A DNA stretch of 64,000 nt from an uncultured Solirubrobacterales bacterium (GCA_963695885.1 CAVOIH010000032.1:31188-95187); one strand, 5' to 3'; shown: positions 46,891 to 62,904, numbered from the stretch's first letter. The notes: a model not told the origin generated them from the sequence alone. Translations and numbers: made by a program.

Positions 46891-48315
46891 ATGAGTAGTT
46901 CACTGAGACTGACCGCCGGGTCGATCGTTCTGGCCGCCTGCCTGCTTCTTCCGGCAACCCGGGCGCCGGCGACCGACAATCCCACCGCCCCTCCTCGGCC
47001 CAAGCTCCACAAGTGCGACATCGGCGCGAACAAGCCGTTCCGCTGTGGCCGGGTGATGGTGCCGGCGGTCCGCGGCCTGCCGAAGCTCGGCAAGCAGAAG
47101 ATCGGGTTCGCGATCCGTCCCCGTGGCGACCGGTCGCGCCCGTCGAAGGGCGCGTTCGTGTTCGTCGAGGGCGGTCCCGGTTACGCGGCGACGAACTCCG
47201 ACTCGATCAAGCCGTTCGGGGCGGTCTTCGCTCCTTTCCTCGAGCGGCACGACGTCATCGCGATCGACCAGCGCGGCACCGGGCTCTCCAATCCGCTGAA
47301 CTGCAAACAGCTGCAGCGCGGACGGGTGCCGCAGCAGAAGGCGCTCAAGGCCTGTGCGAGGAAGCTCGGCCCGAAGTACCAGGGCTACACGACGGCCGAT
47401 TCGGCGGCCGACATCGAGGCGGTCCGCCGGGCGCTCAGGCTGCCGAAGCGCAAGATGATCCTCTACGGCGATTCCTACGGCACCTACCTCGGGCAGTCGT
47501 ATGCGGCCAGGTACGGCAAGGGGCTGAGGGGAATGATCCTCTCGTCCGCCTACCCCGGCAACGACCCCTACTGGCGGACGCTCTACCCGGCCGCGCAGAA
47601 GGCCGTGCGACTCTCCTGCAAGCGCTTCCCCGAGTGTTCCGGCAACGCGCTGGGACGGCTCAATCGCACGATGAAGCGGTCCGGGGTCAAGTCGCGGTTC
47701 GTCAGCAACATCCTCGGCTACCTCATGGGCACCGCGCCGAGCTACTCCCCCAACGGGTACCGGAACCTGAACACCGCGGTCTCGGCCTGGCTGCGGGGCA
47801 GCCGGAAGGAGCTGCACGAGCTGGTCGACCCCGGAGGCCCCGGTTCCGGCCCGCCCGGCTACTTCTCCGAAGGCATGTACGAAGCGGTCACCTGCAACGA
47901 TTACCCGACCCCGTGGAATCAGAGGTCCGCCATTCCCGGGCGCCGCAAGCAGTTCGCCCGGGCCATCCGGGACTTCCGTCCGAAGGACTTCTGGGCCCCG
48001 ATCCCCAGGGGCACCTGGATGAAGGATCCGGCCAGCGACATCGACAACTGCATAACGTGGCCGGGCCCGACCCCGCGGATCAAACCGCCGATCCCGGCCG
48101 GGAAGAAGATGCCGGGGAGGCTGAACACCCTGGTCCTCGCCGGCGAGTTCGACGCGATCACGACGGTGAAGGAAGCCCGGATGGTGAACCGGCGCTTCCC
48201 GCGCGGCCGCCTGTACGTGGTGCCGAACCGCGGCCACGCCTCGGAGCTCTACTACCCGTTCACGTCGCCGGCGACCGGGCGGATCCGCCACTTCGTCCGG
48301 AATCTCATCCGGTAG
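46891..48315 (+). CDS. Secreted alpha/beta hydrolase (tripeptidyl-aminopeptidase-like)
   Basis: 474 aa. Signal peptide, nucleophile elbow YGDSYGT, IDQRGTGLS. Confidence 0.75.
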   Translation: MSSSLRLTAGSIVLAACLLLPATRAPATDNPTAPPRPKLHKCDIGANKPFRCGRVMVPAVRGLPKLGKQKIGFAIRPRGDRSRPSKGAFVFVEGGPGYAATNSDSIKPFGAVFAPFLERHDVIAIDQRGTGLSNPLNCKQLQRGRVPQQKALKACARKLGPKYQGYTTADSAADIEAVRRALRLPKRKMILYGDSYGTYLGQSYAARYGKGLRGMILSSAYPGNDPYWRTLYPAAQKAVRLSCKRFPECSGNALGRLNRTMKRSGVKSRFVSNILGYLMGTAPSYSPNGYRNLNTAVSAWLRGSRKELHELVDPGGPGSGPPGYFSEGMYEAVTCNDYPTPWNQRSAIPGRRKQFARAIRDFRPKDFWAPIPRGTWMKDPASDIDNCITWPGPTPRIKPPIPAGKKMPGRLNTLVLAGEFDAITTVKEARMVNRRFPRGRLYVVPNRGHASELYYPFTSPATGRIRHFVRNLIR

Positions 48316-48325
48316 CCGGACCCGC

Positions 48326-48868
48326 TCAGCGCGGCGCGAATTCCTGGGAACCGTCGCCCGGCGGCGGGTTCGGTACCGGAGTGGCCGGAGGCGGGGCCGG
48401 TGCCGGGGCGACCGGGACCGGCGCGGGTGCCGGGGCGGGGGCAACGGCCGCCGGAGGGGCCGGGGCCACCGGCGCCGGTGCTGCGGGGGCTCCCGAGCCG
48501 GCAGGTTTGCGGGTGGATCCGCCGTGCGTTCGGGCGGCCCGGCCGGCCTTGCGGGGCACCCGGGGACGGTTCCGGCGACGTTCGTCCCGCGGTTTCGCGG
48601 CGCGGCCCTTGCGCTCGCCCGCCTCCTCACCACGCTTCTGTTCGTTCCGGCCTTCGCCGTCATCGGACCGGGCGTGGGGAGGGTCCCGGGGTTCCGGGAG
48701 CAGGGATCCGGGGTTGGTCTCGGACGCCGTGAAACCCACATCAGGTGGCAGTTCCGGCGGTTCGGGCGTCTTCAGCAGACCGGGCAGGACGGAGAGCCCG
48801 AGCACCACCAATCCGGCCACGGCGGCGACCTTGATCGCGCGTTCCCGATCGATCCGGAGCTCCTTCAT
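48326..48868 (-). CDS. Hypothetical membrane-anchored Pro/Arg/Ala-rich protein
   Basis: I chose the ATG at 48868 (MKELRIDRERAIKVAAVAGLVVLGL...) within track ORF 48326-48907. Low-complexity C-terminus. Weak call. Confidence 0.35.
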   Translation of the reverse strand: MKELRIDRERAIKVAAVAGLVVLGLSVLPGLLKTPEPPELPPDVGFTASETNPGSLLPEPRDPPHARSDDGEGRNEQKRGEEAGERKGRAAKPRDERRRNRPRVPRKAGRAARTHGGSTRKPAGSGAPAAPAPVAPAPPAAVAPAPAPAPVPVAPAPAPPPATPVPNPPPGDGSQEFAPR

Positions 48869-48932
48869 GCCGGTTTCAGGTCGGGGCCGGGAAGTCTCTC
48901 CCCCCAAAGCCCGTTATAGTCCCGCGTCGATT

Positions 48933-49331
48933 TTGTCTGAAGAACCCCGCCAATACGAACTGGTCCTCATGCTCGATCCTGATCTGGCCGAGGAAAACCG
49001 TGAGAAGCTTGCGTCTGAGACCAAGGCTTCGATCGAGGCATCCGGAAAACTCCTCCATGAAGACAACTGGGGAATCCGCGAGATGGCCTACGAGATCAAT
49101 CGCAAGAAGGAATCGGACTACCGCTGGTACCGCTTCGACGCTCCCCGCGATCTCCTGACCCAGCTGGACCACACCCTGAAGATCACCGACGGCGTCGTCC
49201 GTTTCCGCGTATTCAAGGTCAACCCCGACGCCCCTGTTCTGCCGGCCCCTCCGGCCACAGCCGCAATCATGCAGCCCACGGGCGATGACGATGAGCGCCG
49301 GGGCCGAGGCGGCCGTTACCGCGACGAGTAG
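48933..49331 (+). CDS. rpsF: 30S ribosomal protein S6
   Basis: TTG at 48933 inside track ORF 47013-49331. MSEEPRQYELVLMLDPDL...GKLLHEDNWGIREMAYEI...YRWYRFD is the canonical S6 pattern. Confidence 0.85.
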   Translation: MSEEPRQYELVLMLDPDLAEENREKLASETKASIEASGKLLHEDNWGIREMAYEINRKKESDYRWYRFDAPRDLLTQLDHTLKITDGVVRFRVFKVNPDAPVLPAPPATAAIMQPTGDDDERRGRGGRYRDE

Positions 49332-49740
49332 TCGTCTCGTAGTGCCTGCGGCCCGCTTGGGTCGCCAACAGGTAGCTGGCGTAGACGAGGTCAGCAACTC
49401 GAGACATCGAAGTTGGCTTTCCATAACCAGTGACCTTGAACCTTCCGGCGCTATTCACAGGGAACTTCAACCTGGATGCAGAGCGTTGACCTCTCCGAGA
49501 GGGCGGAACCGCCCTTCTTCCCTGATCCGGGTCCGCCCGCCATCGCGGTAGACCGATACCCATATCGCGGCAGACCGGAATCCGTCCCAAATTCCGGCTT
49601 TGGGGGGCGAGAAATTCCGTCCCGTCCCTTTTGACCTCATCACGTCTCGTTAGATTTGGACTCTTGCTGCCGACACTCCCGTCAGCAGTGCAAACGCAAA
49701 GTCTGTTGAGACGGAAAGAACAACGAGGAGCGAATACGCA

Positions 49741-49830
49741 ATGGCTGAGAACATCAACATTTACAGCCCTCCACGTTCTGTTCGCGGTTGTTCGCCGAGT
49801 GCTGAGGTCGGCAGCCGTTCAAGTCCGTGA
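49741..49830 (+). pseudogene. Orphaned ssb 5' end (attL-like): GGAG, 10 nt, then ATGGCTGAGAACATCAAC, running into a 29-codon dead ORF
   Basis: The first 18 nt match the ssb start at 60189-60206 in 15/18 positions and encode the same MAENIN. The RBS spacing is identical. Similarity stops after codon 6. Confidence 0.7.
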
Positions 49831-50068
49831 CGTCGGGACATTAGGCTGTCAAGGGCCATCAGGAGTTGATGAGCTGGTCCGCTTGATTCCTACCAGGGTT
49901 ACCAGCGCAAAGTGCCGCATGAATGCGAACTTCGGGTTTGACATGCCCAGGTGGATCGCATAGGCTGGCCCGACTGTAGGTTTAGGAGAGGAATCAGAGC
50001 ATGGGTGTGACGCAAATGGGAGGATCCGGTTCGCGTCGGACGACGAAACGGGTCACCGGGAGATCGAA

Positions 50069-50656
50069 TTGACTTCGGTCCGAAAAGCTACGCTCGTCTC
50101 ACGACGTCATCTCCTTTCTCGATTCACCATTTTATCTATCGGCGGGGCGGTCGCGTCTCTTCCTTTCGTAGGTTCTACCAACGCATCGTCCGCAGGCGAG
50201 GGCGAATCCGGTCACTTATTTAGCGATTCGGAAGAGGTGCACTCGACGATAGGCGTCGCGATACAGAGGTTTGTCGAGCGAGAAGACGTCACTCCCCCCT
50301 TCGGCCAGGAAAACTTGACCGTCGGGATATTGCTCAACGATCCGCAGGCGAACATCGTCGTGAGCTTGAATGGTGAGAATGGTTCCGTGACTTTTGACCG
50401 GGAGGCGCTGCCACCCGACTCCGCAGTTTCGATGAGCGCGAATACCGCGCACGATCTAATTTCCGGACAACGAAACCTTGGCAAGGTGACCAGCGCGAAC
50501 GAGATCGTGGTGGTGGGAGATCGACAGGCATTGGCAGTTCTTTCACCTTTTCCCGAGAGCGTGCGACCCCACTACAAGGCCGCCCTTGGCGATGAAAGGC
50601 GCTCCGACCTACTGGTCAACTGGGACAAAGAGCCTCAACTAAAGGATGAGAAATGA
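50069..50656 (+). CDS. Tat-signal secreted protein with SCP2-like (sterol-carrier-like) C-terminal region
   Basis: 195 aa, TTG start. SRRHLLSRFTILSIGGAVASLPF twin-arginine-type signal. SMSANTAHDLISGQRNLGKVTSANEIVVVGD resembles the SCP2 fold motif (from memory). Confidence 0.5.
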   Translation: MTSVRKATLVSRRHLLSRFTILSIGGAVASLPFVGSTNASSAGEGESGHLFSDSEEVHSTIGVAIQRFVEREDVTPPFGQENLTVGILLNDPQANIVVSLNGENGSVTFDREALPPDSAVSMSANTAHDLISGQRNLGKVTSANEIVVVGDRQALAVLSPFPESVRPHYKAALGDERRSDLLVNWDKEPQLKDEK

Positions 50657-51866
50657 CCCCGGTACCCGGACCATATCGTGGGTTCAGTCTTTGGGATCCT
50701 GCTGTTCAGCCGACCCTTCCAGCCGACCCTTCCAGCCGATCATTTCACTGCAGTCGAGTCGGCCGAACGGCAGGCCGCGATGGGTGCGAATATAGGTCGC
50801 ATCAACATCAACTGGGGCGGTCAGATGGGCGGTTATTCTGGCAGTGGAACGCCTCTGCCGGCTCTTCAGGCTACTTCGTCGAGTAGCTGGAACTACGGCT
50901 CAGTTAGATCGAATCAAAGACATCGTGAGGGCCGCCAGGTCATTCAAGTCGACCTACCAGGTGCTTCCAATGATCGACGGGTTGCCCACTTGGGTCGATG
51001 GACGCGATTCGGGCGGTCATTACACAACCACCGACGCGGGTGCCAACCAGTATGGAATCGCGGTGGGGCAAATAATGGGCTATCTCAACAATGACCCGAC
51101 ACTGCCTGATGTTTGCAACTTTATTGAGCTGTCGAACGAACCGAATCAGAAGGTTACCTCCGGCACGCCTCATGCCACTGCCATCCCTCCTGAGGACTAT
51201 GGGCGGATGGCTGCCTATGCGACCCATTGGGCGGACTACTGCGGCGGTCAGAAATCCGATGGAACTCCGAAGAGAAATGTGCTCGCGGGTGCGCTAGCGA
51301 TCCGGGGCGGTCGAGCCTCATTCGTGAATGACTGGTTGCCCGAAGAATACGCAGCAAGCATGCGAGATGCGATCAATACCTACCTCTACCTGCTTAACCC
51401 CACAAACGCCACCAAGCGGGGGATCCTCCAGGCCGCGTGGCGAGGCTCCTTTCATCCGTACGCAAACCTTGGAAACAACCAAAACGGATTCGCTTACACC
51501 GATCCGCTAAATCCTTCTGACGACAACACTGCCGCGGAGGGCTCTGCGACTGTCATGGACACCTACCTCAGCAGGTTGAGACCGGTCTTCGGAACTACTC
51601 GAAAGTTGTGGTTCACAGAAACTGGAATCTCTAGCAACAAGATCGGCGCTAGTGAGCATGCCACGTTTCATGCGGCTGTTTGGTTCGGAGTAGCCTCATA
51701 TCCACAGGTCGAAGGCGTGATCAACTTCGGCTTCACCGACCTTGACCCGTTGATGACTAGCCCGACGGGTCTCTACTACAAGCTGGGTGTCGTTGAAGCA
51801 AGCGACGGGAAAACCTACAAGCCAGCTGGGAACACGCTCAAGGGGATCTGGGATGCCTGGATATAG
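50653..51866 (+). pseudogene. Clan GH-A (TIM-barrel) glycoside hydrolase, apparently frame-disrupted
   Basis: The coding signal runs through three frames. It starts at ATG 50653 (ATGA-coupled to the upstream stop), moves to the frame of ORF 50678 (GANIGRININWGG), then to the frame of ORF 50844 (IELSNEPN acid/base, SFHPY, WFTETG nucleophile). A 13-bp tandem duplication at 50710-50735 explains the first shift. Confidence 0.5.
50710..50735 (+). repeat. 13-bp x2 tandem duplication (ccgacccttccag) causing a +1 frameshift
   Basis: Read directly and anchored on ORF 50678 codons. Both frames read QPTLPAD across the two copies. Confidence 0.85.
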
Positions 51867-51972
51867 TCGAGAGTTTCAGACTCGGAACGGACCAGCAAAG
51901 CCCCCTGCCCGCAACTTAGGCAACTTCAGCGGTTTAGCTCATCGAGAACGCAATCCGAGGAGACGCAGAGCG

Positions 51973-53172
51973 ATGAAACGCCTGAAGAGTTTAAGCCTTT
52001 CCGTAATTGGAGTTGTCCTGCTCGGGGCGGGGCTTTCGCAGGTTGCTGAAGCCACGGTGCCCGGGCAGAACGGAAAGATAATGCTCGAAAGCAATGTCAG
52101 CGGCGCCGTGAAGCTCTTTACCGTGGATCCGCGCGGGGGCCCTTTGACTCAGATCTCTTCGGGTTCGGAGAGCAGTTACGATGCTTCTTTTTCCCCAGAC
52201 GGCACCCGGATTGTCTACGTTCGGAACAACCCGGACGACCAGCTTTGGACCAAGCCATCATCAGGCTCGGGTGGTCAAGAAGTGCCCTTGACGGATAACT
52301 CCGATTTTGACTCGAATTATCCAGGGGCCCCGGTTTACGCTCCAAACGGTGAATCGATCGTTTACAACGTTGCGGAGATTTTCGGTGGACCGGGCGAAGT
52401 ACCCCCGGTCGAAGAACTTCGAAAAATATCGGTCGAAGGTGGAGATGCCGCACCGTTGGGTCAGTGGGCGAGCTTCAGCTTGAACCCCGACATTTCGCCC
52501 GACGGGTCGCGAATCGCGATCGTGGATGCTGGCGGCTCAGAATCAGTAATTCGAATACTCACGATTGGTGGGACAGTTGTCAGCACACTTCCAACAGCAG
52601 GTCTAGCCGCAGACAATCCAACTTATTCAGCGGATGGATCGCGCATAGCATTTACTGGTACGGCCGGAGGCATCCGGCAAATCTTTTCGATCGGGGCCGA
52701 CGGTACCGGTCTGGATCAGCTAACCAGTGACCCAACTGAGAAACGTCGGCCAGTTTATTCACCAGACGGCACTGCCATCGCTTACTCGGATGCCAGCGGG
52801 GGCGCGATCTTTGCGATGGAAGCCGATGGTTCGAACCCCCACGAAGTGGCTTCAACACCTGCCTTCGACACCATGGCTGACTGGCAGCGGAAGACACCGT
52901 TTCTGGTTCGGAAAGTAAATCCGTTCAAGCGCACTGTTCAAACACGGATATTCGGGCCGGGTCGCCTCACAGTGTTCGGCAAGTCCGTTCGCAGGTCTTC
53001 GAAGATGGCGAAGTCCTCGGGTATGAAATCCGTCGCCCTTCGCCTGAAGAGCAGCACGAAGAGAAGGCTGGTCAAGCGTGGTCAGGCCCGATTCCCTGTC
53101 AGCATCAGGTTCGCGCCCAAGGGGGCCCTGTCAACGACCCGCAAGACGATCGTCCGCTTGCGGACTCGCTAA
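51973..53172 (+). CDS. Secreted TolB-like beta-propeller (PD40 repeat) protein with basic C-terminal domain
   Basis: ATG at 51973 inside track ORF 51787-53172, with a GAGGAG RBS 10 nt upstream. Signal peptide, repeated SPDG(T/S)RI(V/A) motifs, K/R-rich last ~90 aa. Confidence 0.7.
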   Translation: MKRLKSLSLSVIGVVLLGAGLSQVAEATVPGQNGKIMLESNVSGAVKLFTVDPRGGPLTQISSGSESSYDASFSPDGTRIVYVRNNPDDQLWTKPSSGSGGQEVPLTDNSDFDSNYPGAPVYAPNGESIVYNVAEIFGGPGEVPPVEELRKISVEGGDAAPLGQWASFSLNPDISPDGSRIAIVDAGGSESVIRILTIGGTVVSTLPTAGLAADNPTYSADGSRIAFTGTAGGIRQIFSIGADGTGLDQLTSDPTEKRRPVYSPDGTAIAYSDASGGAIFAMEADGSNPHEVASTPAFDTMADWQRKTPFLVRKVNPFKRTVQTRIFGPGRLTVFGKSVRRSSKMAKSSGMKSVALRLKSSTKRRLVKRGQARFPVSIRFAPKGALSTTRKTIVRLRTR

Positions 53173-53255
53173 CTGACGTTCGCTAGACCAGGTCGGGTAG
53201 TCAGCCCGAGATGGCTTAGGTAGATCGCGCGGAAAGACACAGAGTTCTTCGTCAC

Positions 53256-54396
53256 TAGTGTAGTGTCTCACAAATACATTGACATACGGTCGGTGAGCCG
53301 GTAACCTCGACCGCATGCCGAAAGCTGCCGCAGTCACGGTCGTATCCGACGAACAAAGGGCGACCCTGGAGCGCTGGGCCGGCGCCCACAAGACGCCGCA
53401 GAGCATCGCCACCAGGGCCCGGATCGTGCTGCGGGCCGCGGCGGGCGAATCCAACAGCGCGATCGCACGAGAGCTCGGGGTCTCGCGCCCGACGGTGATC
53501 ATGTGGCGCCAGCGCTTCGCCCGGGGCGGGCCGCCCGCGCTGGCCGAGACCAGGCCGGGTCGGGGGCGCAAGCCTTCGATCCCGACCAGCAAGGTGAAGG
53601 CGATCATCGAGGCCACCACCCAGACCACCCCGCCAGGCGAGACCCACTGGAGCTGCCGGACGATGGCCGAGGCTCAGGGCGTGAGCCCGGCGACGGTCCA
53701 GCGGATCTGGGATGCGCACGGTCTCAAGCCGCACCGGGTGCGGAGCTTCAAGCTCTCCAACGATCCGCTCTTCTTCGAGAAGCTCACCGATGTCGTCGGG
53801 CTCTACCTGAACCCGCCCGAGAGGGCGATCGTCCTTTGCGTCGACGAGAAGTCGCAGATCCAGGCACTCGATCGCACCCAGGCGAGCCTGCCGATGAAGA
53901 AGGGCCGGGCAGGGACGATGACCCACGACTACAAGCGCAACGGCACGACCACCCTGTTTGCGGCGCTCTCGATGATCGACGGCCGGGTTATCGGAGAGTG
54001 CCTTCCCCGCCATCGCCACCAGGAGTTCCTGAGGTTCCTGCGCACGCTCGATCGGGAGTTCCCCGGTGAGCAGGAACTGCATCTGATCGTCGACAACTAC
54101 CGCACCCACAAGCACGCCAACGTCGACAAGTGGCTCCGCAGGCACCCGCGCTTTCACCTGCATTTCACCCCGACCTCGAGCTCGTGGCTGAACCTGGTCG
54201 AGCGCTGGTTTCGCGAGCTCACCGAGAAGGCGATCCGTCGCGGCGCCTTTTACTCGGTGCCCGACCTTATCGAGGCGATCGAGGAGTTCCTCGAGGTACA
54301 CAACGACGATCCCAAGCCGTTCGTGTGGACGGCGTCGGCTGAGGCGATCGTCGCGAAGGTGAATCGATGTAAAGCTGTTTTAGAGACGGTGCACTA
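53256..54396 (+). mobile_element. IS630-family insertion sequence, flanked by a TA duplication
   Basis: Imperfect terminal inverted repeats: GTGTAGTGTCTCAC... on the left, and GTGCACCGTCTCTA... as the reverse complement of the right end. A TA sits at both junctions (53256-57 and 54395-96). About 1.14 kb, with a single DDE transposase ORF. GC is visibly higher than the surrounding island. Confidence 0.8.
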
Positions 54397-54397
54397 G
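53315..54397 (+). CDS. IS630 family transposase
   Basis: 360 aa. N-terminal HTH (SNSAIARELGVSRPTVIMWRQRF), DDE region ...LCVDEKSQIQAL...IVDNYRTHK...WLNLVERWF. Confidence 0.9.
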   Translation: MPKAAAVTVVSDEQRATLERWAGAHKTPQSIATRARIVLRAAAGESNSAIARELGVSRPTVIMWRQRFARGGPPALAETRPGRGRKPSIPTSKVKAIIEATTQTTPPGETHWSCRTMAEAQGVSPATVQRIWDAHGLKPHRVRSFKLSNDPLFFEKLTDVVGLYLNPPERAIVLCVDEKSQIQALDRTQASLPMKKGRAGTMTHDYKRNGTTTLFAALSMIDGRVIGECLPRHRHQEFLRFLRTLDREFPGEQELHLIVDNYRTHKHANVDKWLRRHPRFHLHFTPTSSSWLNLVERWFRELTEKAIRRGAFYSVPDLIEAIEEFLEVHNDDPKPFVWTASAEAIVAKVNRCKAVLETVH

Positions 54398-54608
54398 CCG
54401 AAGTATTCTGGGCCAACGCTCCCCTAGAGCTTTCAGGGACGGGTAGGCCGAAATGGGCGGAGCGAATGCGGTGCATGGGTTGCCTGGCGACTTGGCACAC
54501 TGCCTTTCGATGCGGGAGCCAATCTTCAGCAAACACCCCGATTGGCGTTGTTCGCCATGTTCGGCAGTGTCCGTTTAGCGTCCGAGTTCTGTTCTAGCAT
54601 TACGGAGC

Positions 54609-55793
54609 ATGAACGGAAGTGAACTAGGTACAATCGAACGGCTTTCCCGTACTGATGTCCGGCCGTTTCGTGTCCGTATCTCGGAGGCTCTCTCATACTG
54701 GACCGTCGTGGACTCGAAGTTCCGGCCGGTCACCGAAGCTGATCGATTCTTACAAGAGTCGCGCTTTGGGCGGGATCGTGCTGAAAGGACGACTCAGATA
54801 TACGCCGGAGACCTTTGCCTGTATTTCAACTGGCTGACTAGAAAAGGTCTAGATCTAGAGTCTGGACCTTCAGATCTCGGCCGGTTTGTTTTGGAGCTTC
54901 GTACGCAACCGATTGAGGCCGGAAAGAACCGTGGACACCCGCGATCGGCTGAGCGAATAAACGCGATTCTCTCGGTAGTCCGAAGCTTCTACAAGTTTGC
55001 CGTTGCTCACGATCTCGTCGGGGGGCAGGTCTTGAGCAAACTGTTTGAGGTTGGCGATAATCGGTGGCTTCCTGCGGAGCTCAAACCCGATGGACACGGT
55101 TTGCGTTATCGGGCTGCCCCTCGCCATGTCCTGCACGGCAGCCGTAACAAGACCCCGCGCGTGGCCTCTCCCGAGGAGTTCCACGCCCTGGTCGAAGCTT
55201 CCGAGCATTGGCGGGATAGGTTCTTGCTGGCGCTCTTGTGGTTCGGGGGTCTCCGCGTCGGCCAGGCACTTGGCCTGAGACGGGAAGACCTTCACTTTGC
55301 GTCTGATTCAACGGTGCTGGGCTGCCAAACCGAGGGTCCTCATATCCACATCCGAAAACGTGACAATGTGAACCGGGCCGATTCGAAGCGGCGAAAAGAA
55401 TTCGGGATACCGGCCCATCACTACATTTTGGGGTTTTACGAGCGTTACCTCGAAGAACGAGCCGAGGTGAAGAAGGCTGAGGCTTCCGACTTCGTCTTCG
55501 TAAATCTCTTCGCCGCTCCGCTCGGAGAACCGATGAAGCCGGATGGGGCGAATCGCATCTTCACGACCCTCTCCAAGCGTGCCGGTATTGAACCTGCGAT
55601 TACCCCCCACGCTTTTCGACATGCTGCCGGGACCAGGTGGGCCGAGAGCGGGGGGCTAGACGTAGCCCAAGCCCTGCTTGGCCATAGCTCGATTCAGAGT
55701 ACCCAGATCTACAACCACATCCGTGGAGAAAGGCTCCGGGATGCGGTGGATGCTGTAACGCCGGGCAGCCAACCCACGACGGAGAACCATTGA
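54609..55793 (+). CDS. Tyrosine recombinase/integrase (TnpA-like, smaller of pair)
   Basis: 394 aa. SAM-like N-domain; catalytic GLRVGQALGLRRED (R), HAFRHAAGT (HxxR), LGHSSIQSTQIYNH (H...Y). Confidence 0.85.
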   Translation: MNGSELGTIERLSRTDVRPFRVRISEALSYWTVVDSKFRPVTEADRFLQESRFGRDRAERTTQIYAGDLCLYFNWLTRKGLDLESGPSDLGRFVLELRTQPIEAGKNRGHPRSAERINAILSVVRSFYKFAVAHDLVGGQVLSKLFEVGDNRWLPAELKPDGHGLRYRAAPRHVLHGSRNKTPRVASPEEFHALVEASEHWRDRFLLALLWFGGLRVGQALGLRREDLHFASDSTVLGCQTEGPHIHIRKRDNVNRADSKRRKEFGIPAHHYILGFYERYLEERAEVKKAEASDFVFVNLFAAPLGEPMKPDGANRIFTTLSKRAGIEPAITPHAFRHAAGTRWAESGGLDVAQALLGHSSIQSTQIYNHIRGERLRDAVDAVTPGSQPTTENH

Positions 55794-58279
55794 CCGTGCC
55801 AGCGACCAGCCAGCTTCCGAATCTCCATTCCGGGCCAAGTGAGCTGGAATTGTTGCGAACCGAGATTGATTGGCGCCTGCTCAAAAAGCATGGCTGGAAT
55901 CAGAAGAACCTGCACTTCGAACCGGCTCAGAATGACACCTATTTCGGTTACGAGTTTTGCGATGTCCCGGACTGCGAGATGGCATCCTTCAAAGCAGGCC
56001 TTTGCACCGCATGCCATCGTCGCTTCGACAAAGTTGGAGGTACCCGGAACGCGTTCTTGAGAATTCCCCGCCCACCTGCCGATTTGAACGACAATGGGCC
56101 GGATCTCTGTCTCGTTTGTCGAACCCCAGGGCACGAACGTCCTTCATCGGGCCCCAGCGGCCTTTGTTCTAACTGCGAGGGCAAACGTCGCTGGCGAGAT
56201 CAAAGCGTAGAAGCTTTCGTCAGTGGTGACAATCATTGGGAGCCTGCCTCGCCGCTGCCCGGCCACGGGTTGTGTACGCGCCTTGGCTGCTCGCGTCGGG
56301 CCGCTACTCGCAGTAACCGCCTTTGTACGCGCTGCCGTGAGGAGTGGCGATTCGCAGGGCATCCGGAGCTAGCCAAGTGGCGATCGTCAGCCCCACCTAT
56401 GGTTTTCGGTGGAGGTCGCTTTGTTGATCTCTCGCCCCTTACCGAAAGGATCAGACTAGAGCTGCTCCTAGGAATTCAAACCAGTGCGATGGATGAAGTG
56501 CTTCTTAGCTGCAACACGATCCAGCAACTAGCGGGTCGTGCCCTTCGATCCAAGATGGATTCTCTGCTCGAGTTCAGTATGGAGCGCGGCAATGGCAGTG
56601 ACCGACTCTTTCTCAACCGGACCCAGCAGGCGATAAGGATCGTCTTCGTTGATCCTGACGAGGAACTTGAACGCGATGTCTGGGATCTGAGGATGCTCGG
56701 TTTCCCCAGCGGCAGCGGACGTCGACGCCGCCTTGACTTCTCGCCGATCAGTCAAGACTGGCTTCGAGAAGCTGCCAAGGAATGGGCAAAGGAGAACATC
56801 GCTCGGAGTGTCGGTAGAACAGGTGAGATCCTGGGCTCGGTCAGGCGACTGTCGGCACATCTAAAGGCCCGGCCCGACAAGGGCGAAGTCGTCTCGGCGC
56901 TCCAAAGGACCGACATCGCAGCCTTGCTCAGGCGGCTTGCGCGAATGGAGTCGGTGGGAAAACTGTCCCCGGCTTCTCGCCGATCGATCGTTTATGATTT
57001 GCGCTTCTTTCTGCGTAGCTCCCGCGAGCTAGGGCTTGCAGACCGGGCAGCCCCCTTGGAGGGACTTGCAGACAACTTCTCGATTGTGAGAGAAGACATA
57101 CCTGCGGCCTGGCGATCAGCCGAGACAGGCTCAGACAAGTCCTTGCCCCAAACGGTGATGGATCAACTCTTGAGCGAGAGCGCACAAGCACAGCTGCTTG
57201 AGGTCGAAGGCGCTGAAGTTCGTGATCTGATCTTGCTTCAGATCTGGATCGGACGACGGCCCGGCGAAACCTGTTCCCTTGAACTGGATTGTCTGGAATA
57301 CGGATCAAGCGGCGACCCTGCCCTCCTGTATGACGCCGGCAAGCAAAGGCTCCGAAGGATTCGCGTGCCGATCCATCGCGAACCGGCCGAAATCATCGAG
57401 CGTCAAGCCAAACGCATCACCGAGCGCTTTCCAGATACTCCCCGCTCGGAGCTGGCCCTGTTTCCAGCTAGATCGAGGAATCCTCGTGGTATCCGATCAA
57501 TACCCGTGACCCAGATGGCAAACCTGATTCGAGATTGGGTAGATCGGCTTGAGATCAAAGGGCAGAGCGGATCCGACTATTCCAAGGATCGCATCACCGC
57601 GTACGCTTTTCGGCATACGTTCGCCCAGCGCCACGCTGACAAAGGAACACCGGTTGACGTGCTTTCGGCCTTGCTGGCCCACGAGAACCTTTCCTCCACG
57701 CAGCACTACTATCACGTGCCCGAGAAGCGCAAGCGAATGGCAACCGCCCTCGTTTCTCCAATGACCATGAACAATGCGGGCGAAGTTGTAGGTGGCGACG
57801 AAGTGCTTGACGCCATGTTGGCCCGGCGTGAAATTGGTCGGATCCCGGTGCCCCTGGGATGGTGCACCGAAAAGTCAAATGTCGCAGCACACGGCAGCTC
57901 TTGGCCCTACAGGTACCGATGCTTGGGCTGCAGCCATTTCCGGACCGACCCCTCCCATTTAGAGGACCTCCAGAATCACCTGCGGAGGCTCTTGGCCGCT
58001 GATGAAGAACTCGGCGCCAAACTACCTGGGCTTGCCGACTGGGCAAAAGATGATGCGCTTTTATCTCAGGGCGAGATCAAGGCGGTGCGTGAGCTGGTCC
58101 GCGCCAACGAGCGCCTGTTGGAAAAGCTGCCAGAGGAGGATCGTGAGACGGTAGAAGAAGCGATTGCGACGATGCGAAAGCTCAGAGCGCAGGCAGACCT
58201 GAACATTCCGGAAACGGACGCCCTTCAGGTGAGGATCGTTTCCCCGACAACTAATCCGGCGGTAGAGAACGATGGCTGA
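55790..58279 (+). CDS. Large tyrosine recombinase (TnpB-like) with three N-terminal Cys4 zinc-ribbon-like modules
   Basis: 829 aa, 4-nt overlap with the upstream recombinase. AFRHTFAQRHADKG (HxxR), LAHENLSSTQHYYH (H...Y). Cys at residues 57/62/72/75, 107/110/126/129 and 162/167/179/182. Confidence 0.8.
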   Translation: MTVPATSQLPNLHSGPSELELLRTEIDWRLLKKHGWNQKNLHFEPAQNDTYFGYEFCDVPDCEMASFKAGLCTACHRRFDKVGGTRNAFLRIPRPPADLNDNGPDLCLVCRTPGHERPSSGPSGLCSNCEGKRRWRDQSVEAFVSGDNHWEPASPLPGHGLCTRLGCSRRAATRSNRLCTRCREEWRFAGHPELAKWRSSAPPMVFGGGRFVDLSPLTERIRLELLLGIQTSAMDEVLLSCNTIQQLAGRALRSKMDSLLEFSMERGNGSDRLFLNRTQQAIRIVFVDPDEELERDVWDLRMLGFPSGSGRRRRLDFSPISQDWLREAAKEWAKENIARSVGRTGEILGSVRRLSAHLKARPDKGEVVSALQRTDIAALLRRLARMESVGKLSPASRRSIVYDLRFFLRSSRELGLADRAAPLEGLADNFSIVREDIPAAWRSAETGSDKSLPQTVMDQLLSESAQAQLLEVEGAEVRDLILLQIWIGRRPGETCSLELDCLEYGSSGDPALLYDAGKQRLRRIRVPIHREPAEIIERQAKRITERFPDTPRSELALFPARSRNPRGIRSIPVTQMANLIRDWVDRLEIKGQSGSDYSKDRITAYAFRHTFAQRHADKGTPVDVLSALLAHENLSSTQHYYHVPEKRKRMATALVSPMTMNNAGEVVGGDEVLDAMLARREIGRIPVPLGWCTEKSNVAAHGSSWPYRYRCLGCSHFRTDPSHLEDLQNHLRRLLAADEELGAKLPGLADWAKDDALLSQGEIKAVRELVRANERLLEKLPEEDRETVEEAIATMRKLRAQADLNIPETDALQVRIVSPTTNPAVENDG

Positions 58280-58841
58280 AACAGAACGCACGAGAGCTAT
58301 GCGCGAAACTCGCAGGCTCTCAAGCAAACAGAAGCGCGGGCAGGTAATGGCGGCCTTGAAAGCAATGCTCGAGCGCGGCGAGGAAGTGTCGATCTCGGCT
58401 CTGGCCAGGCGAGCTGGTGTCGGACGCACGTTCATCTACGAAAACCCCGATCTCAGAGCTGAGATCGAACTCCATATTCGCGAGTCACAGGAGCAAGCGG
58501 CCGCCGGCATGATGGCGAGTGCTCGGGTTAGCTCTGCTTCGCTTCGGGCGGAGCTTGAAAACTACAAAGCAATAAATCGCCGACAAAAGGGTGAAATAAG
58601 TGCGCTAAGAGCCCGACTTAGTGAGCTGATGGGGGAGAAGCTGATGGAAGATATGCCTGAGGTCAGCTTCGGGGCATTTGATCAGAAAGCTGATGCCGAA
58701 TTGACAAAGCTCGAAGGCGACAAGTTCCGACTCGAAGAACGTGTCGCGGTTTTGGAAGAAGAGCTTGAGGCGGCGCGTGAGGTGAATCGAAAGTTGATGG
58801 GAAGGCTGAACCGGGAAGGCAGTGATGCTCGAACTATCTAA
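58272..58841 (+). CDS. DUF6262-like HTH plus coiled-coil protein (TnpC-position gene)
   Basis: 189 aa, 8-nt overlap with the upstream gene. VSISALARRAGVGRTFIYENPDLRAEIE matches my recollection of DUF6262 proteins that follow recombinase pairs. Long heptad-like C-terminus. Confidence 0.55.
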   Translation: MAETERTRAMRETRRLSSKQKRGQVMAALKAMLERGEEVSISALARRAGVGRTFIYENPDLRAEIELHIRESQEQAAAGMMASARVSSASLRAELENYKAINRRQKGEISALRARLSELMGEKLMEDMPEVSFGAFDQKADAELTKLEGDKFRLEERVAVLEEELEAAREVNRKLMGRLNREGSDARTI

Positions 58842-60042
58842 ATCACAAACCCCAGGCTGGCCACCTGCCCCGGCCGCCGAGGTATTCCACGGACCGGCGG
58901 GTGAGTTCGTCGAGCTCACTGAACCTCACACCGAGGCCGACCCGATGGCGCTGCTCGCCCAGTTCCTGATTGCTTTTGGGGTCGCTGCCGGCCGAAATTG
59001 CTACTACGCGGTAGAGGCAACACGACATTATCCCAACGAGTTCTGTGTCCTCGTAGGGCCTTCCAGCAAGGGTCGCAAGGGTTCCTCCTGGGAGCACGTC
59101 GAGCAAATGATGGCTACCTCTGACCCGGAGTTCGTTGACGAATGTCTGGCTATGGGGCTTTCCTCGGGCGAGGGTCTGATCGCTGAAGTTCGTGATGGCA
59201 AAGAAGACGAAGCTGATAAACGGGTGCTTGTTTTGGAGCAGGAGTTCGCCCAGGTCATGAAGGTTCTGGCTCGGGAGGGGAACACCCTGTCTCCCGTGGT
59301 TCGCCAGGCATGGGACGGCAAGACATTGCAAACGATGGCCAAGAATTCCCCAATGCGTGCGACCAATGCCCACATCGCCCTGGTCGGACACATCACAAAG
59401 GATGAGTTGCTTCGCTACTTGGGAGCAACTGAACTCGCCAACGGCTTTTTCAACCGCTTTCTTGTGATCGCGGTACAGAGGTCGAAGGAACTGCCATTCG
59501 GAGGCCAGTTGGACGGAGAGGACCTGACGAGAATTCAAAGCGACCTTGGTACGGCGCTGGAGTTTTCCTCCCACCCGAGGAAGATCGACTTCGACCATGA
59601 GGCATCTGACTTTTGGGTCTCTACCTACAGCGAACTGTCGAAGGGTGGTACCGGTCTACTTGGGGCTGCGACTGCTCGATCCGAAGCGCACTGTGTCCGT
59701 TTGGCGCTGATCTACGCACTGCTCGACCGGTCCGAGGCCATCGGCCTAGGTCACCTCGAAGCAGCCTTGGCCTTCTGGAAGTACGCCGCCGATAGCGCCC
59801 GATGGATCTTCGGAGAGAGCTTTGGCGATCCAACCGCTGATGACATCTGGGCCCTGGCCCGGGAGCGAACCGGGGGAGTATCCCGCACAGAAGTACGCGA
59901 TCTTTTCTCTCGCAACAAGAAGTCCCGGGAGATCGACCGAGCTTTGACCGTCCTGGTTGAGTCCGGCCGACTCGAACGGAGGGAACATTCAGACGGCAAG
60001 GGACGACCGACTGAGATCTGGATGCCAAGCAATGCTGCATAG
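58822..60042 (+). CDS. DUF3987-like P-loop protein (mobile-element helicase/primase-associated type)
   Basis: 406 aa, 20-nt overlap with the upstream gene. VLVGPSSKGRKGSSWE Walker-A-like loop. Overall layout resembles DUF3987 (from memory). Confidence 0.45.
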   Translation: MMLELSKSQTPGWPPAPAAEVFHGPAGEFVELTEPHTEADPMALLAQFLIAFGVAAGRNCYYAVEATRHYPNEFCVLVGPSSKGRKGSSWEHVEQMMATSDPEFVDECLAMGLSSGEGLIAEVRDGKEDEADKRVLVLEQEFAQVMKVLAREGNTLSPVVRQAWDGKTLQTMAKNSPMRATNAHIALVGHITKDELLRYLGATELANGFFNRFLVIAVQRSKELPFGGQLDGEDLTRIQSDLGTALEFSSHPRKIDFDHEASDFWVSTYSELSKGGTGLLGAATARSEAHCVRLALIYALLDRSEAIGLGHLEAALAFWKYAADSARWIFGESFGDPTADDIWALARERTGGVSRTEVRDLFSRNKKSREIDRALTVLVESGRLERREHSDGKGRPTEIWMPSNAA

Positions 60043-60188
60043 TAGATCTTCAATTTGTCGTTTTTGTCGTGAATCGTTAGCGCGTCCTGACTTTGGGGAT
60101 GCATGTTTCCAGTCCTCACGTCCCGGACAGTTGTTCGTGACGCCAAATACTGCTTATTAGCAGGCAAAACACTAGGAGAAATAGCCAA

Positions 60189-60653
60189 ATGGCCGAAAAT
60201 ATCAACAGAGTCACCATCACCGGCAACCTGACCGCCGACCCCGAACTGCGCCATACCCCGAGTGGCACCGCCGTGTGCCAGCTTCGTGTGGCGGTGAACG
60301 GCCGCCGGAAGGACCAGGGCGGCCAGTGGGTCGACAAGCCCAACTACTTCAACGTGACCGTCTGGGGCGCCCAGGGCGAGAACTGCAAGAACTACCTTTC
60401 GAAGGGCCGACCGGTCGCGGTCAACGGCCGCCTCGACTGGCGCGAGTGGGAAGCCAAGGACGGGTCCGGCAAGCGGCAGTCGGTCGAGATCGTCGCCGAC
60501 ACGGTCCAGTTCCTCGGATCCCGTGACGGTTCGGCCCCGGGCGGCAACGGCAACGGTGGCGGATTCACGCCGGCCTCCGACGTCCCGGCCGACACGGGTG
60601 ACTTCGCGGCGGCTCCGGGTGGCGGTGGCGCCGATGACGACATTCCTTTCTAG
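60189..60653 (+). CDS. ssb: Single-stranded DNA-binding protein
   Basis: 154 aa. OB fold NRVTITGNLTADPELRHTPSG...FNVTVWG, glycine-rich linker, canonical acidic tip DDDIPF. The first 7 codons are AT-rich at the third position, unlike the rest of the gene. Confidence 0.9.
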   Translation: MAENINRVTITGNLTADPELRHTPSGTAVCQLRVAVNGRRKDQGGQWVDKPNYFNVTVWGAQGENCKNYLSKGRPVAVNGRLDWREWEAKDGSGKRQSVEIVADTVQFLGSRDGSAPGGNGNGGGFTPASDVPADTGDFAAAPGGGGADDDIPF

Positions 60654-60794
60654 CGCCGCGCCCGCAGCGGACTTTTGCGGCCAATCCGGCGGCCAAGCCC
60701 CTGTGGCTGCCGGAAACCGGCTCGAACCGTTAGGATCACGAGTCCGTCAGTGCCCGGTCGTCCGGGCTGGAACTATGTAAGGCACCGAAAAACT

Positions 60795-61055
60795 TTGGCT
60801 AAGACAAGAGAAGCAGGATCATCGCGAAAAGGGCGCCGCTACAGCGAGCGGGTCCGCCCGCGCAAGTACACGAAGATCACCGCCGAGGACATCGACTTCA
60901 AGGACCTGACGCTCCTGCGCCGGTTCATCTCGGACAAGGGCAAGACCCGGTCCCGCCGGGTGACCGGGCTGTCCCGCAAGCACCAGGCCCAGCTGGGCGT
61001 GGCCGTCAAGCGCGCCCGCGAAGTGGCCCTCCTCCCGTACGTGGGTGAGCGGTAA
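60795..61055 (+). CDS. rpsR: 30S ribosomal protein S18
   Basis: TTG at 60795 inside track ORF 60675-61055. ...[50 protein letters not shown]. Confidence 0.85.
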
Positions 61056-61507
61056 TGGCCCAGGCCATCCTCCTGGCCGACGTCGAAGGGCTCGGTGAGA
61101 ACGGGACCGCCGTCGAGGTTTCCCCGGGATACCTCCGCAACTTCCTCCAGCCCCGCGGCCTGGCCCAGCCGGCTACCCCGGGCGCCCTCGAAGAGGCGAT
61201 CCGCCGGAAGGTTCAGGCCGAGAAGGCCGAGCGCGAGGCAATCGCCCGCGCCGCCGAGTCGGCGTCGCTGCTTTCCAAGACCGTCCTGACGATCAACCAC
61301 CGCGCCGGCGAAGACGGCAAGCTCTACGGCTCGGTCACGACCAAGGAGATCGCCGAGGCGATCCGCGATGCCCGTGGCATCAAGGTCGACCGCAGGAAGA
61401 TCCGTCTCGACGTGCCGATCCATCAGGTCGGTACCTACATGATCGACGTCGAAGTAACGGGCGGCGCCACGGCTTCGGTCAAGACGATCGTCGCCGAAGA
61501 GAAATAA
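61055..61507 (+). CDS. rplI: 50S ribosomal protein L9
   Basis: 150 aa. ILLADVEGLGENGTAVEVSPGYLRNFL...GKLYGSVT. The ATG overlaps the rpsR stop. Confidence 0.9.
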   Translation: MAQAILLADVEGLGENGTAVEVSPGYLRNFLQPRGLAQPATPGALEEAIRRKVQAEKAEREAIARAAESASLLSKTVLTINHRAGEDGKLYGSVTTKEIAEAIRDARGIKVDRRKIRLDVPIHQVGTYMIDVEVTGGATASVKTIVAEEK

Positions 61508-61560: not shown

Positions 61561-62904
61561 ATGCTGGTCAGCGATCCCGCGGTCAACCGCGTAATCGACG
61601 ACGCCCGGCTGAAAGCCGGCGATTTCTACCTCGACCGCCACCGGCTGATCTATTCGGCAATGGTCGAGCTCTACAGCACCGACCAGCCCTGCGACGAGCT
61701 GACCGTGAACGAGGCCCTGACCTCGGCCGGGCAGATCGAAGAGGCGGGCGGCAAGAACTACGTCTCCGAGCTGGCGGCCAAAGTACCCGCTCCCGGTAAC
61801 GCCGGCCACTACGCGAAGATCGTCCAGGAGAACGCGCTGCTCCGGCGCCTGCTCGACACCAGCCACCAGATCGGCGCCTGGGTCGAGGAGCGCGAGGGCA
61901 GCGGCCACGAACTCTCCGAGCGCGCCGAGCAGCTGCTGTTCGAGGTCGCGCACAAGGAGCAGTCGGGCGACTTCCGGGTGGTGCGGCAGGTGATCGACGA
62001 CGAAGTGGACCGCCTCGAGCGGATCGCGTCCGGTGAGCTCAAGGAGACCGGGATCCCCTCCGGATTCAAGCACCTCGACGGGATGACCGGCGGGTTCCAG
62101 CCCTCGAACCTGATCATCGTCGCCGCCCGGCCCTCGGTCGGCAAAAGCGCCTTCGTCGCGAACATCGCCGAGCACGTGGCGGTCAACGAAGGGCTACCGG
62201 TCGCGTTCTTCTCGCTCGAAATGTCGGAGATCGAACTCGCCCAGCGATTCATCGCCTCCCAGTCCAAGGTGTACGGCGAGAACCTCCGCCGGGCGAAGAT
62301 CAGCTCGAAGGACTGGGGCAAGATCACGGCGGCCGGCAACCGCCTCGAGAACGCGCCCCTCTGGATCGACGTGACTTCGGACCTCGGCCTGCTCGACCTG
62401 AGGGCCAAGGCGCGCCGCCTCCACACCCAGGAACTGGACCGGGGCGGGCTCGGCATGATCATCGTCGACTACCTGCAGCTGATGCGCATGGACGAGTCGC
62501 GCTCGAGCATGGTCGAGCGGGTCGGTCAGATCAGCCGTGGGCTCAAGCTTCTCGCCAACGAGCTCGAAGTGCCGGTGCTCGCCCTTTCCCAGCTCAACCG
62601 CGCCAGCGAGAACCGGCCGGTGACGGATCGCCGGCCGATGCTCTCGGACCTCCGCGACTCAGGCAACATCGAGCAGGACGCCGACCTGGTCGCGTTTCTC
62701 TACCGCGAGGACGTCTACCGCAAGGAAGAGGAACGAGACGGCACCGCCGAGGTGATCATCGCCAAGCACCGGAACGGCCCGATCGGCAAGAGCCCCCTGA
62801 CCTTCCTGCCGCAGTATCCCAAGTTCGTGGAACGCGCGCCGGAGCACCCGACGGGCGAGGGCTCGCCGGCCGCCGTGCGGGCCCAGGAAGAGCAGTACGG
62901 ATGA
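61561..62904 (+). CDS. dnaB: Replicative DNA helicase DnaB (true start probably upstream near 61504, see findings)
   Basis: 447 aa from the first ATG. GFKHLDGMTGGFQPSNLIIVAARPSVGKSAF Walker A, IVDYLQLM, ALSQLNR. Confidence 0.9.
   Translation: MLVSDPAVNRVIDDARLKAGDFYLDRHRLIYSAMVELYSTDQPCDELTVNEALTSAGQIEEAGGKNYVSELAAKVPAPGNAGHYAKIVQENALLRRLLDTSHQIGAWVEEREGSGHELSERAEQLLFEVAHKEQSGDFRVVRQVIDDEVDRLERIASGELKETGIPSGFKHLDGMTGGFQPSNLIIVAARPSVGKSAFVANIAEHVAVNEGLPVAFFSLEMSEIELAQRFIASQSKVYGENLRRAKISSKDWGKITAAGNRLENAPLWIDVTSDLGLLDLRAKARRLHTQELDRGGLGMIIVDYLQLMRMDESRSSMVERVGQISRGLKLLANELEVPVLALSQLNRASENRPVTDRRPMLSDLRDSGNIEQDADLVAFLYREDVYRKEEERDGTAEVIIAKHRNGPIGKSPLTFLPQYPKFVERAPEHPTGEGSPAAVRAQEEQYG

Follow-up and report, generated by a model that had tools for sequence, protein, structure and literature searches.

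We analysed a 64,000-nt stretch of DNA (hereafter the window) from an uncultured Solirubrobacterales bacterium (GCA_963695885.1 CAVOIH010000032.1:31188-95187), in which four overlapping genes, designated here A, B, C and D, lie directly upstream of the single-stranded DNA-binding protein gene ssb. An earlier note, made from the sequence without database searches, had likened these genes to the tnpA-tnpB-tnpC set of the transposon Tn554 with a fourth gene added, and had proposed that they mediated an insertion at the ssb start. We consider it probable that the locus holds an integrated, site-specific element of the Tn554 family, from an actinobacterial branch with a long TnpB-like recombinase, which lies in ssb and carries D as a mobility accessory. 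Loci compared with the window are designated by L numbers (L092 is Tn554, L093 is Tn558, and L079, from Saccharopolyspora hattusasensis, is a nested case).

The A-B-C-D module and its relatives

All four genes proved to be intact open reading frames (ORFs) at exactly the positions given in the earlier note (Table 1). According to the ORF listing, the overlap amounts to 4 nt (TTGA) at the A/B junction (...CATTGACC), 8 nt at the B/C junction (...GATGGCTGA) and 20 nt at the C/D junction (...GTGATGCTCGAACTATCTAA), or 17 nt for the latter if D starts at ATG. As the 4-nt and 8-nt overlaps recur in the relatives L001 and L087, this operon structure is conserved and not a product of chance. A-B-C-D is one translationally coupled operon within a conserved core (54532-60207); all its ORFs are open and the catalytic residues of the recombinases are kept.

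The product of A matches the Pfam families Phage_integrase (2e-29) and SAM_1 and has a complete catalytic set (R215, H334xxR337, H359 and Y368). In B, the Phage_integrase match (1e-13) spans aa 452-645 and, as in A, exceeds the curated cut-off; residues R490, K518, H631 and Y640 are invariant in the family, and Y605-x-x-R608 (AYAFRH) stands in the place of HxxR. The signature R...HxxR...Y, previously ascribed to both recombinases, is thus complete in A, whereas in B a family-wide Tyr replaces the first His. In BLASTP comparisons, A matched TnpA of Tn554 (26 % over 369 aa, E 5e-25) and TnpB over a 46-aa motif only, and B matched TnpB (27 % over 462 aa, E 4e-25), its E value against TnpA being 0.49. 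B and TnpB further share a C-terminal Cys motif, G[WY]C...C...CLxCxxFxT, represented in B by C692...C711xxC714.

B also has a Cys-rich N-terminal insertion of about 150 aa (aa ~45-195, window 55920-56370), absent from TnpB of Tn554 and Tn558. It consists of three zinc-ribbon-like CxxC...LCxxC repeats with invariant Cys residues (57/62/72/75, 107/110/126 and 162/167/179/182), and no match to it was found in Pfam or in PDB. In the AlphaFold2 (AF2) model of B, with a predicted local distance difference test (pLDDT) of 79, the central two-domain recombinase is canonical and matches XerA, Cre, XerH and Tn1549 Int; fold comparison of this model retrieved no solved structural counterpart of the extensions.

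The product of C matches DUF6262 (Pfam, 3.4e-14, 53 bits for a cut-off of 29) and is composed of a helix-turn-helix (HTH)-like N-terminal part and a C-terminal coiled coil. On the same profile, TnpC of Tn554 and of Tn558 score 55 and 60 bits, and TnpC of Tn6188 from Listeria is annotated as a DUF6262 family protein (PMC11947258). Pairwise BLASTP between C and TnpC gave no significant match; the homology is detectable by profile methods, with a probability of 95.6 % (E 1.3e-8, 106 columns) in the profile-profile comparison by hhalign. Because A and B are reciprocal best matches of TnpA and TnpB, share the Cys motif with TnpB and are accompanied by a profile-level homologue of TnpC, the recombination module is, judged by these homologies, a member of the Tn554 family, as its gene arrangement had led the earlier note to suppose.

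Relatives of B numbered 41 in a word-indexed search, 274 clusters in an exhaustive search (E <= 1e-30) and 401 confirmed stretches in GTDB genomes, the latter nearly all from Actinomycetota (Solirubrobacterales, Acidimicrobiales, Streptomyces, Saccharopolyspora, Actinoplanes and Conexibacter). The order A-B-C was kept in ~79 of the 83 genome loci of a tblastn survey, which bears out the conserved gene order expected of homologous modules, and some genomes held several copies of the family. On plasmids, the B search retrieved Enterococcus, Staphylococcus and Mammaliicoccus, as well as plasmids of Streptomyces, Rhodococcus and Mycobacterium. The A-B-C trio is of a known kind and is conserved throughout Actinomycetota.

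The boundaries of a mobile unit can be read in L079, where a 4,501-bp A-B-C element (8586-13086) is nested in the A (TnpA-like) gene of another copy and flanked by the 6-bp cores CATCCC and CAGCCC; the uninterrupted copy has CAGCCC. Comparison of this nested insertion with the uninterrupted copy identifies A-B-C plus ~130 bp on each side as the mobile unit. The outer unit (L080 7473-13793; 6.3 kb) has terminal inverted repeats of ~50 bp, unexpected for a Tn554-like element.

That A and B would form an ordinary phage integrase or XerC/XerD pair, with a fortuitous gene order, is an explanation already contradicted, to which we attach next to no probability. The best NCBIfam matches are indeed XerC/XerD models, but all lie far below the cut-offs (117 and 38 bits for cut-offs of ~330), and the reciprocal TnpA/TnpB matches, the order kept in ~79 loci, the nested transposition and the homology to TnpC all speak against it.

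Insertion into ssb and composition of the island

The G+C content, ~68 % over the window, is ~57 % from about 49.4 to 60.2 kb, the change falling exactly at the junctions. Because rpsF ends at 49331 and ssb starts at 60189, this island interrupts the conserved rpsF-ssb-rpsR-rplI operon, with which all island genes are co-directional; in L004 and L087, too, ribosomal protein S6 is encoded upstream of the element. The module itself adjoins ssb, the stop codon of D lying at 60042.

Two versions of the ssb start, taken here as the left and right attachment (att) sites, delimit the island: attL, the displaced native start, and attR, borne by the element. They match at 17 of 20 positions, and each of the three mismatches is at a synonymous third position; a second match to the junction repeat occurred in none of 100 shuffles. 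attL has the host-like codons GAG and AAC and is now joined to element DNA in a dead-end ORF of 29 codons, and attR has the low-GC codons GAA and AAT and reads on into the intact ssb. As delimited by these repeats, the element spans 49760-60207 (10,448 bp) and lies inside ssb between codons 6 and 7. Its right end supplies its own ribosome-binding site (RBS) and a synonymous copy of the first six codons, so that ssb stays intact and its predicted product is preserved exactly.

Strand exchange would fall in the 7-bp core ATCAACA common to both junctions. The uninterrupted ssb would then read ATGGCTGAGAACATCAACAGAGTCACC, the empty site ATGGCTGAGAACATCAACAGAGTCACCATCACC and the joined element ends ...GCCGAAAATATCAACATTTACAGCCCTCC..., and an inverted-repeat relation between the termini, sought by eye at these reconstructed joined ends, was too weak to claim. 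The 7-bp core is identical at both ends in the window and in L087; the ends of the L079 copy differ, and a donor site would be needed to identify a carried-over spacer. Left termini start with TT(T/C)TC family-wide, the nested copy of L079 included. Over ~150 bp, the right end contains the blocks GTCGTTTwTrTCGT, CGTyAGyGCGT, GACA..TGTyCG and ATTwGCAGG.AAA.

Elements at an ssb start fall into four lineages (the window and L084; L087, L088, L094 and L173; L001; L004), which all read towards ssb, have B proteins 45-54 % identical and form one clade in the tree of B proteins. Since the SSB N-termini of the relatives differ (MSGFDIN, MAGNLN), junctions were read one by one; a search of all loci for the window ssb-start sequence with <=2 mismatches retrieved the window alone. 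In L087, rpsF is followed by ATGAGCGGATTCGACATCAACA adjoining TTTTCC..., by A-B-C-D without cargo, and by ...ATGAGTGGGTTTGATATCAACA adjoining CGGTGACC and leading into ssb, for an element of 5,695 bp; the two repeats both encode MSGFDIN, with synonymous differences only and the core ATCAACA. In L004, rpsF precedes a displaced RBS-ATGAGCGGTTTTGAAATCAACC, then the left end and A-B-C-D. L001 has cargo, A-B-C-D and then ssb, with a right end homologous to that of the window. The contig of L084, whose B is 82 % identical to that of the window, ends in ATGGCCGAAAATATCAAC, identical to attR. A metagenome scan with an alignment of the ssb-start clade found mostly other clades and added only L094 and L173, two copies of the L087 lineage.

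In another clade, the homology of a tail-less SSB paralogue breaks off around codon 11-17, precisely where the element ends (L147 ~480-600, L148 ~260-370 and L150 ~4437-4889), so these elements apparently enter the 5' part of an ssb paralogue and leave it unrestored. Read from the junctions of both clades, the 5' regions of ssb-family genes are a recurrent target. A different configuration was observed in L025, which has a full-length, divergent ssb 0.8 kb upstream of A.

Because homology to L084, the closest relative, sets in at 54532, 77 bp upstream of A, the island was divided into the conserved core and a variable cargo (49760-54531; ~4.8 kb). The cargo has the low GC of the module and is not common to L084. 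The IS630-family insertion sequence (IS) that it contains is bounded by the inverted ends GTGTAGTGTCTC... and ...GAGACGGTGCAC, with TA duplicated at 53256-7 and 54395-6; as its G+C content (65-74 %) is host-like and unlike the ~57 % of the island around it, we regard it as a later secondary insertion into the cargo. In L001, the cargo (1-8800) is defence-like and includes ThiF, DUF6791 and BubE (ubiquitin-like conjugation), an M78 peptidase and its HTH partner, together with a serine resolvase and several unknown genes.

Repeats upstream of A are similar in L084, L001 and L087. A second left-end-like sequence (GCAAACA followed by CCCC...GTTGTTCGCC...TGTTCGGC...TGTCCGTT) lies at 54520-54608 in the window, 255-345 in L084 and 8740-8830 in L001, and the elements that have it carry their cargo on the left of the module. 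A tandem integration at the att site of the element itself may have left this sequence behind. The whole island could accordingly be a tandem, made of an intact 5.7-kb A-B-C-D element (54532-60207) and, to its left, of a remnant of another element or circle that entered the same att site and whose recombinase genes were lost. We regard this as possible, if rather doubtful: the cargo-free L087 element, at 5.7 kb, has the size of 54532-60207, the second left-end-like sequence stands just upstream of A here and similarly in L084 and L001, and cargo differs between the 82 %-identical relatives, but neither a second recombinase remnant nor a clear ssb-start copy was found within 49800-54530, cargo and module have the same GC content, and the cargo of L004 lies on the other side of the module, which implies that internal cargo capture also occurs.

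The same junctions bear on another explanation, according to which the module is an immobile fossil whose right end is needed by the essential ssb-rpsR-rplI genes for translation start and perhaps for transcription. It is true that ssb now begins with element DNA, that an IS630 has since landed in the island and that the element is known in integrated form only. Such a fossil nevertheless appears unlikely to us, as the four ORFs are intact and the catalytic residues conserved, precise excision would use the left copy to rebuild the native ssb start, other samples contain an 82 %-identical copy with other cargo, and four lineages at one site imply repeated recent integration.

Table 1 Coordinates of the element, its parts and the surrounding operon in the window
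Feature	Coordinates	Strand	Remarks
rpsF (ribosomal protein S6), upstream host gene	48933-49331	+	S6-like translation; start approximate (in-frame TTG 48933)
attL, displaced native ssb start (RBS-ATG GCT GAG AAC ATC AAC A = MAENIN)	49740-49759	+	reads AATGGCTGAGAACATCAACA; core ATCAACA 49753-49759
Left terminus	49760-49800	+	TTTACAGCC...TGTTCGCG-GT-TGTTCGCC; candidate recombinase-binding repeats; homologous to L087 and L004 left termini
Cargo ORF 1	50069-50656	+	SCP2-like; signal-peptide-like N-terminus (Pfam)
Cargo ORF 2	50844-51866	+	340 aa; no Pfam family
Cargo ORF 3	51787-53172	+	PD40 beta-propeller (Pfam)
IS630-family IS	53258-54394	+	transposase 53315-54397; NCBIfam transpos_IS630 3e-83
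Core module start	54532-54608	+	TGTTCGCC / TGTTCGGC / TGTCCGTT repeats right upstream of A; att-like GCAAACA before
Gene A, TnpA-like tyrosine recombinase	54609-55793	+	394 aa; ATG start
Gene B, TnpB-like large tyrosine recombinase	55790-58279	+	829 aa; TTG start
Gene C, TnpC-like DUF6262 protein	58272-58841	+	189 aa; ATG start
Gene D, standalone DUF3987 AAA+ helicase-like ATPase	58822-60042	+	406 aa; GTG start; ATG next at 58825
Right end, non-coding	60043-60187	+	blocks conserved in window, L084, L087, L001; carries RBS AGGAG for ssb
attR, element-borne ssb start (ATG GCC GAA AAT ATC AAC A = MAENIN)	60188-60207	+	reads AATGGCCGAAAATATCAACA; core ATCAACA 60201-60207
ssb, target gene	60189-60653	+	intact 154-aa ORF; Pfam SSB 1.6e-34, TIGR00621
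rpsR		+	past ssb (ORF list)
rplI	61055-61507	+	past ssb (ORF list)
dnaB	61561-62904	+	past ssb (ORF list)

Around rpsF, three further observations were made. The rpsF-ssb spacer (49332-49739) is ~410 bp long (230-300 bp in L087 and L004), has a lower GC content and contains a terminator-like hairpin at 49604-49623. Upstream of rpsF, the region 48300-48700 reaches 81-82 % G+C, with a Pro/Ala-rich minus-strand ORF at 48326-48907, and the + strand ORF 47013-49331 is a high-GC artefact sharing its end with the real rpsF.

The fourth gene, its RecD2 counterpart and a proposed mechanism

D lies outside the classical Tn554 gene set, as the earlier note stated. In Tn554, tnpA (361 aa) overlaps tnpB (630 aa) by 4 nt, and tnpC (125 aa, DUF6262) comes next, ahead of ant(9)-Ia and erm(A); Tn558 carries fexA. 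The product of D matches Pfam DUF3987 (PF13148; 1.2e-14, 54.8 bits for a gathering cut-off of 27) and, in PHROG, the C-terminal, helicase-like parts of families of helicases and primases, the longer phage proteins being covered C-terminally only. Its invariant residues include G79, K83-G-R-K-G-S88, E139/E141 and R212. A sequence search against PDB gave no match, and no primase, Toprim or prim-pol domain was detected in Pfam, NCBIfam and PHROG searches.

The AF2 model of D (pLDDT 83; predicted template modelling score, pTM, 0.86) consists of an AAA+ domain and a C-terminal winged helix. In Foldseek comparisons, it matched the AAA+/winged-helix part of MCM (E 3e-8, template modelling score, TM, about 0.45-0.49); its matches to DUF3987 and primase-helicase proteins of phages were far stronger (E as low as 3e-25, TM reaching 0.70). 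The predicted fold is that of a replicative-helicase module, in agreement with the link to replication or DNA translocation suggested earlier for this gene.

More than 5,000 homologues of D were retrieved, and in the three contexts sampled elsewhere (3/3) they come after a trio that encodes two recombinases and one small protein, B being shorter in some versions. Among B-family members, D adjoins the trio in ~15 of 79 loci and is missing from 44 loci with enough sequence past C, i.e. about a quarter have it; in the tree of B proteins, these are scattered in a Solirubrobacterales super-clade. The sole trace in the Acidimicrobiales clade is a 44 %-identical D-like gene in L068, non-adjacent and ~1.2 kb downstream of C. 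The co-conservation of the DUF3987-like gene with the trio that the earlier note had anticipated therefore holds for about a quarter of the sampled relatives and fails for the rest. In the cargo-free L087, D sits between C and the right end, inside the repeats. Neither D nor the rest of the module nor the cargo had a match in PADLOC, and the possibility of D being a defence gene was dropped on this ground.

In L048 (13011-15347) and L072 (13001-15268), the place of D is taken by a RecD2-type superfamily 1 (SF1) helicase gene (HHH_RecD2, OB_YrrC, AAA_19/30, SH3_13 and UvrD_C_2 domains), the start of which overlaps the stop codon of C (GTGA). As the homology between these two loci covers A through recD2 and their flanks differ on both sides, recD2 lies inside the mobile unit. 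In L046, L052 and L078, a D N-terminal remnant of ~40 aa lies ahead of recD2. The idea that recD2 would be a second 5'-end target gene was rejected, as displaced recD2 starts upstream of A were at chance level only in L046, L048, L052, L072 and L078. Inverted repeats of ~190 bp with about 70 % identity were seen flanking A-B-C-recD2 in the Solirubrobacterales loci L052 (8290-8483, 15525-15720) and L078 (6378-6573, 15239-15432).

Because two unrelated helicase-type genes fill one coupled slot, an unwinding or replication role tied to mobility is favoured over cargo or defence. Considering its modelled fold, its position and its non-orthologous replacement, we infer that D is a mobility accessory rather than cargo. 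It might instead act as an AAA+ regulator of target choice or synapsis, like MuB, TnsC or IstB for DDE transposases, or be a selfish or cargo gene, and several of its features would suit such roles: it is an AAA+ protein with a winged helix, most trio elements do without it, it is much more conserved than A, B and C, and its Walker A motif is atypical. We give this little credence, since, within the top 50 hits, its best structural matches are the helicase modules of phage primase-helicases and MCM and not MuB, TnsC or IstB, an unrelated RecD2 (SF1) helicase fills the same coupled slot elsewhere, and D belongs to the core of the cargo-free L087 element and matches no defence family.

For the Tn554-family element that we favour, the following scheme can be proposed. 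By analogy with Tn554, A and B together would recombine the joined element ends with the ssb start across a 6-7-bp overlap, and C would set the efficiency or the direction of the reaction. D would unwind, or help to replicate, an excised or copied-out circular intermediate, a role suggested by the same three lines of evidence as above; this fits published proposals of a single-strand-derived circle needing replication, made for Tn554 relatives and for integrative elements that circularize with a strand bias (SEs). The left 4.8 kb would be variable cargo, hit later by IS630. More speculatively, this branch may have repeatedly recruited a partner handling single-stranded DNA (DUF3987 or RecD2 helicase) for a single-stranded or replicated circle, while insertion upstream of ssb would couple SSB supply to the element operon and be neutral for the essential gene; we advance this broader idea only tentatively.

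Several observations weigh against parts of this scheme. Some three quarters of the B-family loci have no D, among them every sampled member of the Streptomyces/Saccharopolyspora clade and almost the entire Acidimicrobiales clade, so D is not needed for recombination as such. The Walker A motif of D (GPSSKGRKGS) is atypical, and its ATPase activity is for this reason not assured. D is ~65 % identical between elements whose B proteins are only ~35 % identical, and this high conservation could mean that D is exchanged independently of the recombinases. A scan of 49300-60700 for sigma-70 and terminator consensus sequences gave fewer hits than shuffles and none in the right end. The cargo, for its part, may have come by a separate tandem integration. 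The SSB-paralogue clade occurs in both orientations (two loci opposite to the module, one the same), so that orientation specificity is established for the ssb-start clade only; the orientation-specific insertion proposed in the earlier note stands there, with a non-random junction repeat and four diverged lineages at the same site and in the same orientation, and does not extend to the paralogue clade.

Relation to known systems

None of the papers that we found describes a translationally coupled fourth gene of helicase type whose slot can also be filled by a non-homologous RecD2 gene, or ssb-start targeting with exact restoration of the gene. Tn554-type elements spread resistance genes in staphylococci and enterococci, and their transposition route remains a matter of discussion, i.e. 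cut-out versus copy-out and double- versus single-strand circle (PMC10214605, PMC12486829). The branch described here brings its own helicase, of which two non-homologous versions occupy one coupled position; this suggests that unwinding or replication belongs to the route. If such helicases are indeed recruited for the circle, these compact elements would offer a direct genetic handle on the transposition route of Tn554, SEs and GInts. The insertion at the ssb start is moreover a clean natural example of an essential gene being entered with its exact product preserved. With well-defined att sites (7-bp core and conserved ends), the compact 5.7-kb element may help to dissect two-recombinase integration in high-GC Gram-positives. 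The hosts and the cargo documented for this family now also extend to soil Solirubrobacterales, the defence genes in L001 included.

The target of Tn554 is att554 in radC. The window element differs from Tn554 in its target, the ssb start, which the element end rebuilds, in its host (Actinomycetota), in having cargo upstream of the module, in a B protein 200 aa longer with the Cys-rich N-terminal insertion, and in the helicase-type fourth gene coupled to tnpC. It shares the tnpA-tnpB-tnpC order and the 4-nt tnpA/tnpB overlap with Tn554, Tn558, Tn553/'Tn552-II', Tn6188 and Tn6674 (Staphylococcus, Enterococcus, Listeria) and, with Tn554 relatives, site-specific insertion; its junctions are compatible with the 6-7-bp core, free of a transposase-type duplication, of these relatives (PMC10214605; PMC12486829). 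For these relatives, a carried-over spacer of 6-7 bp and a replicated single-strand circle have been proposed (PMC12486829, PMC10214605).

Actinobacterial Tn554-related transposons were described in 2012 by Van Houdt et al. (PMC3414803). They combine a 611-828-aa recombinase with one of typical size and usually a TnpC-related third gene, and occur on plasmids and chromosomes, sometimes in several copies. The window follows this pattern, with B (829 aa), A (394 aa) and C (DUF6262) co-directional; a fourth gene, defined ends or target and an insertion in ssb are not reported in the passages retrieved from that paper.

GInts (ginABCD; PMC5385486) likewise carry a recombination operon of four genes at one end, cargo that varies, imperfect flanking repeats of 10-17 nt and a TnpC-like small protein, and six of them are integrated at an ssb homologue with an unaltered product (PMC5385486). 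Their ssb att site (GTGCCGTTCT) appears to correspond to the 3' end of ssb and not to its start. They have three recombinase-fold proteins and no helicase, whereas in the window PF00589 is matched by A and B only and D is an AAA+ protein. Actinobacteria are not mentioned in the main text of PMC5385486, and the hosts given in a later survey are Gamma- and Betaproteobacteria.

SEs resemble the window element in their ordinary and large recombinases, TnpC-like Srap, overlapping genes, 6-bp footprint and proposed copy-out through a nicked or single-strand-derived circle. In contrast, their operon (intA-tfp-intB-srap) has a catalytically dead recombinase-fold protein, Tfp, between the recombinases and no helicase gene, and they are reported from Gammaproteobacteria only; in the window, A and B overlap directly with no gene between them. 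Recombinase-in-trio (RIT) elements have three overlapping tyrosine recombinases, whereas the window has two. As for the gamma-mobile-trio (GMT; GmtY/Z/X), the GmtY model NF040693 scored 38 bits for a cut-off of 340, through a C-terminal motif only. With two recombinase-fold genes and nothing between them, identity with GInts, SEs, RIT or GMT was rejected (PMC5385486; PMC10214605).

The D model superposes (TM up to 0.70) on the DUF3987 helicase modules of primase-helicases from phages and plasmids and on YfjI-family proteins, and D differs from primase-helicase fusions in having no primase or prim-pol domain and in being embedded in a tyrosine-recombinase operon. As regards the insertion, there is a likeness with dusA islands and SXT at prfC (PMC8409611), which also insert at the first codons and supply a new N-terminus with expression signals. 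These elements use a single integrase with a directionality factor and alter the N-terminal sequence, whereas in the window the peptide is restored exactly, the gene entered is an essential replication gene and the module is Tn554-like.

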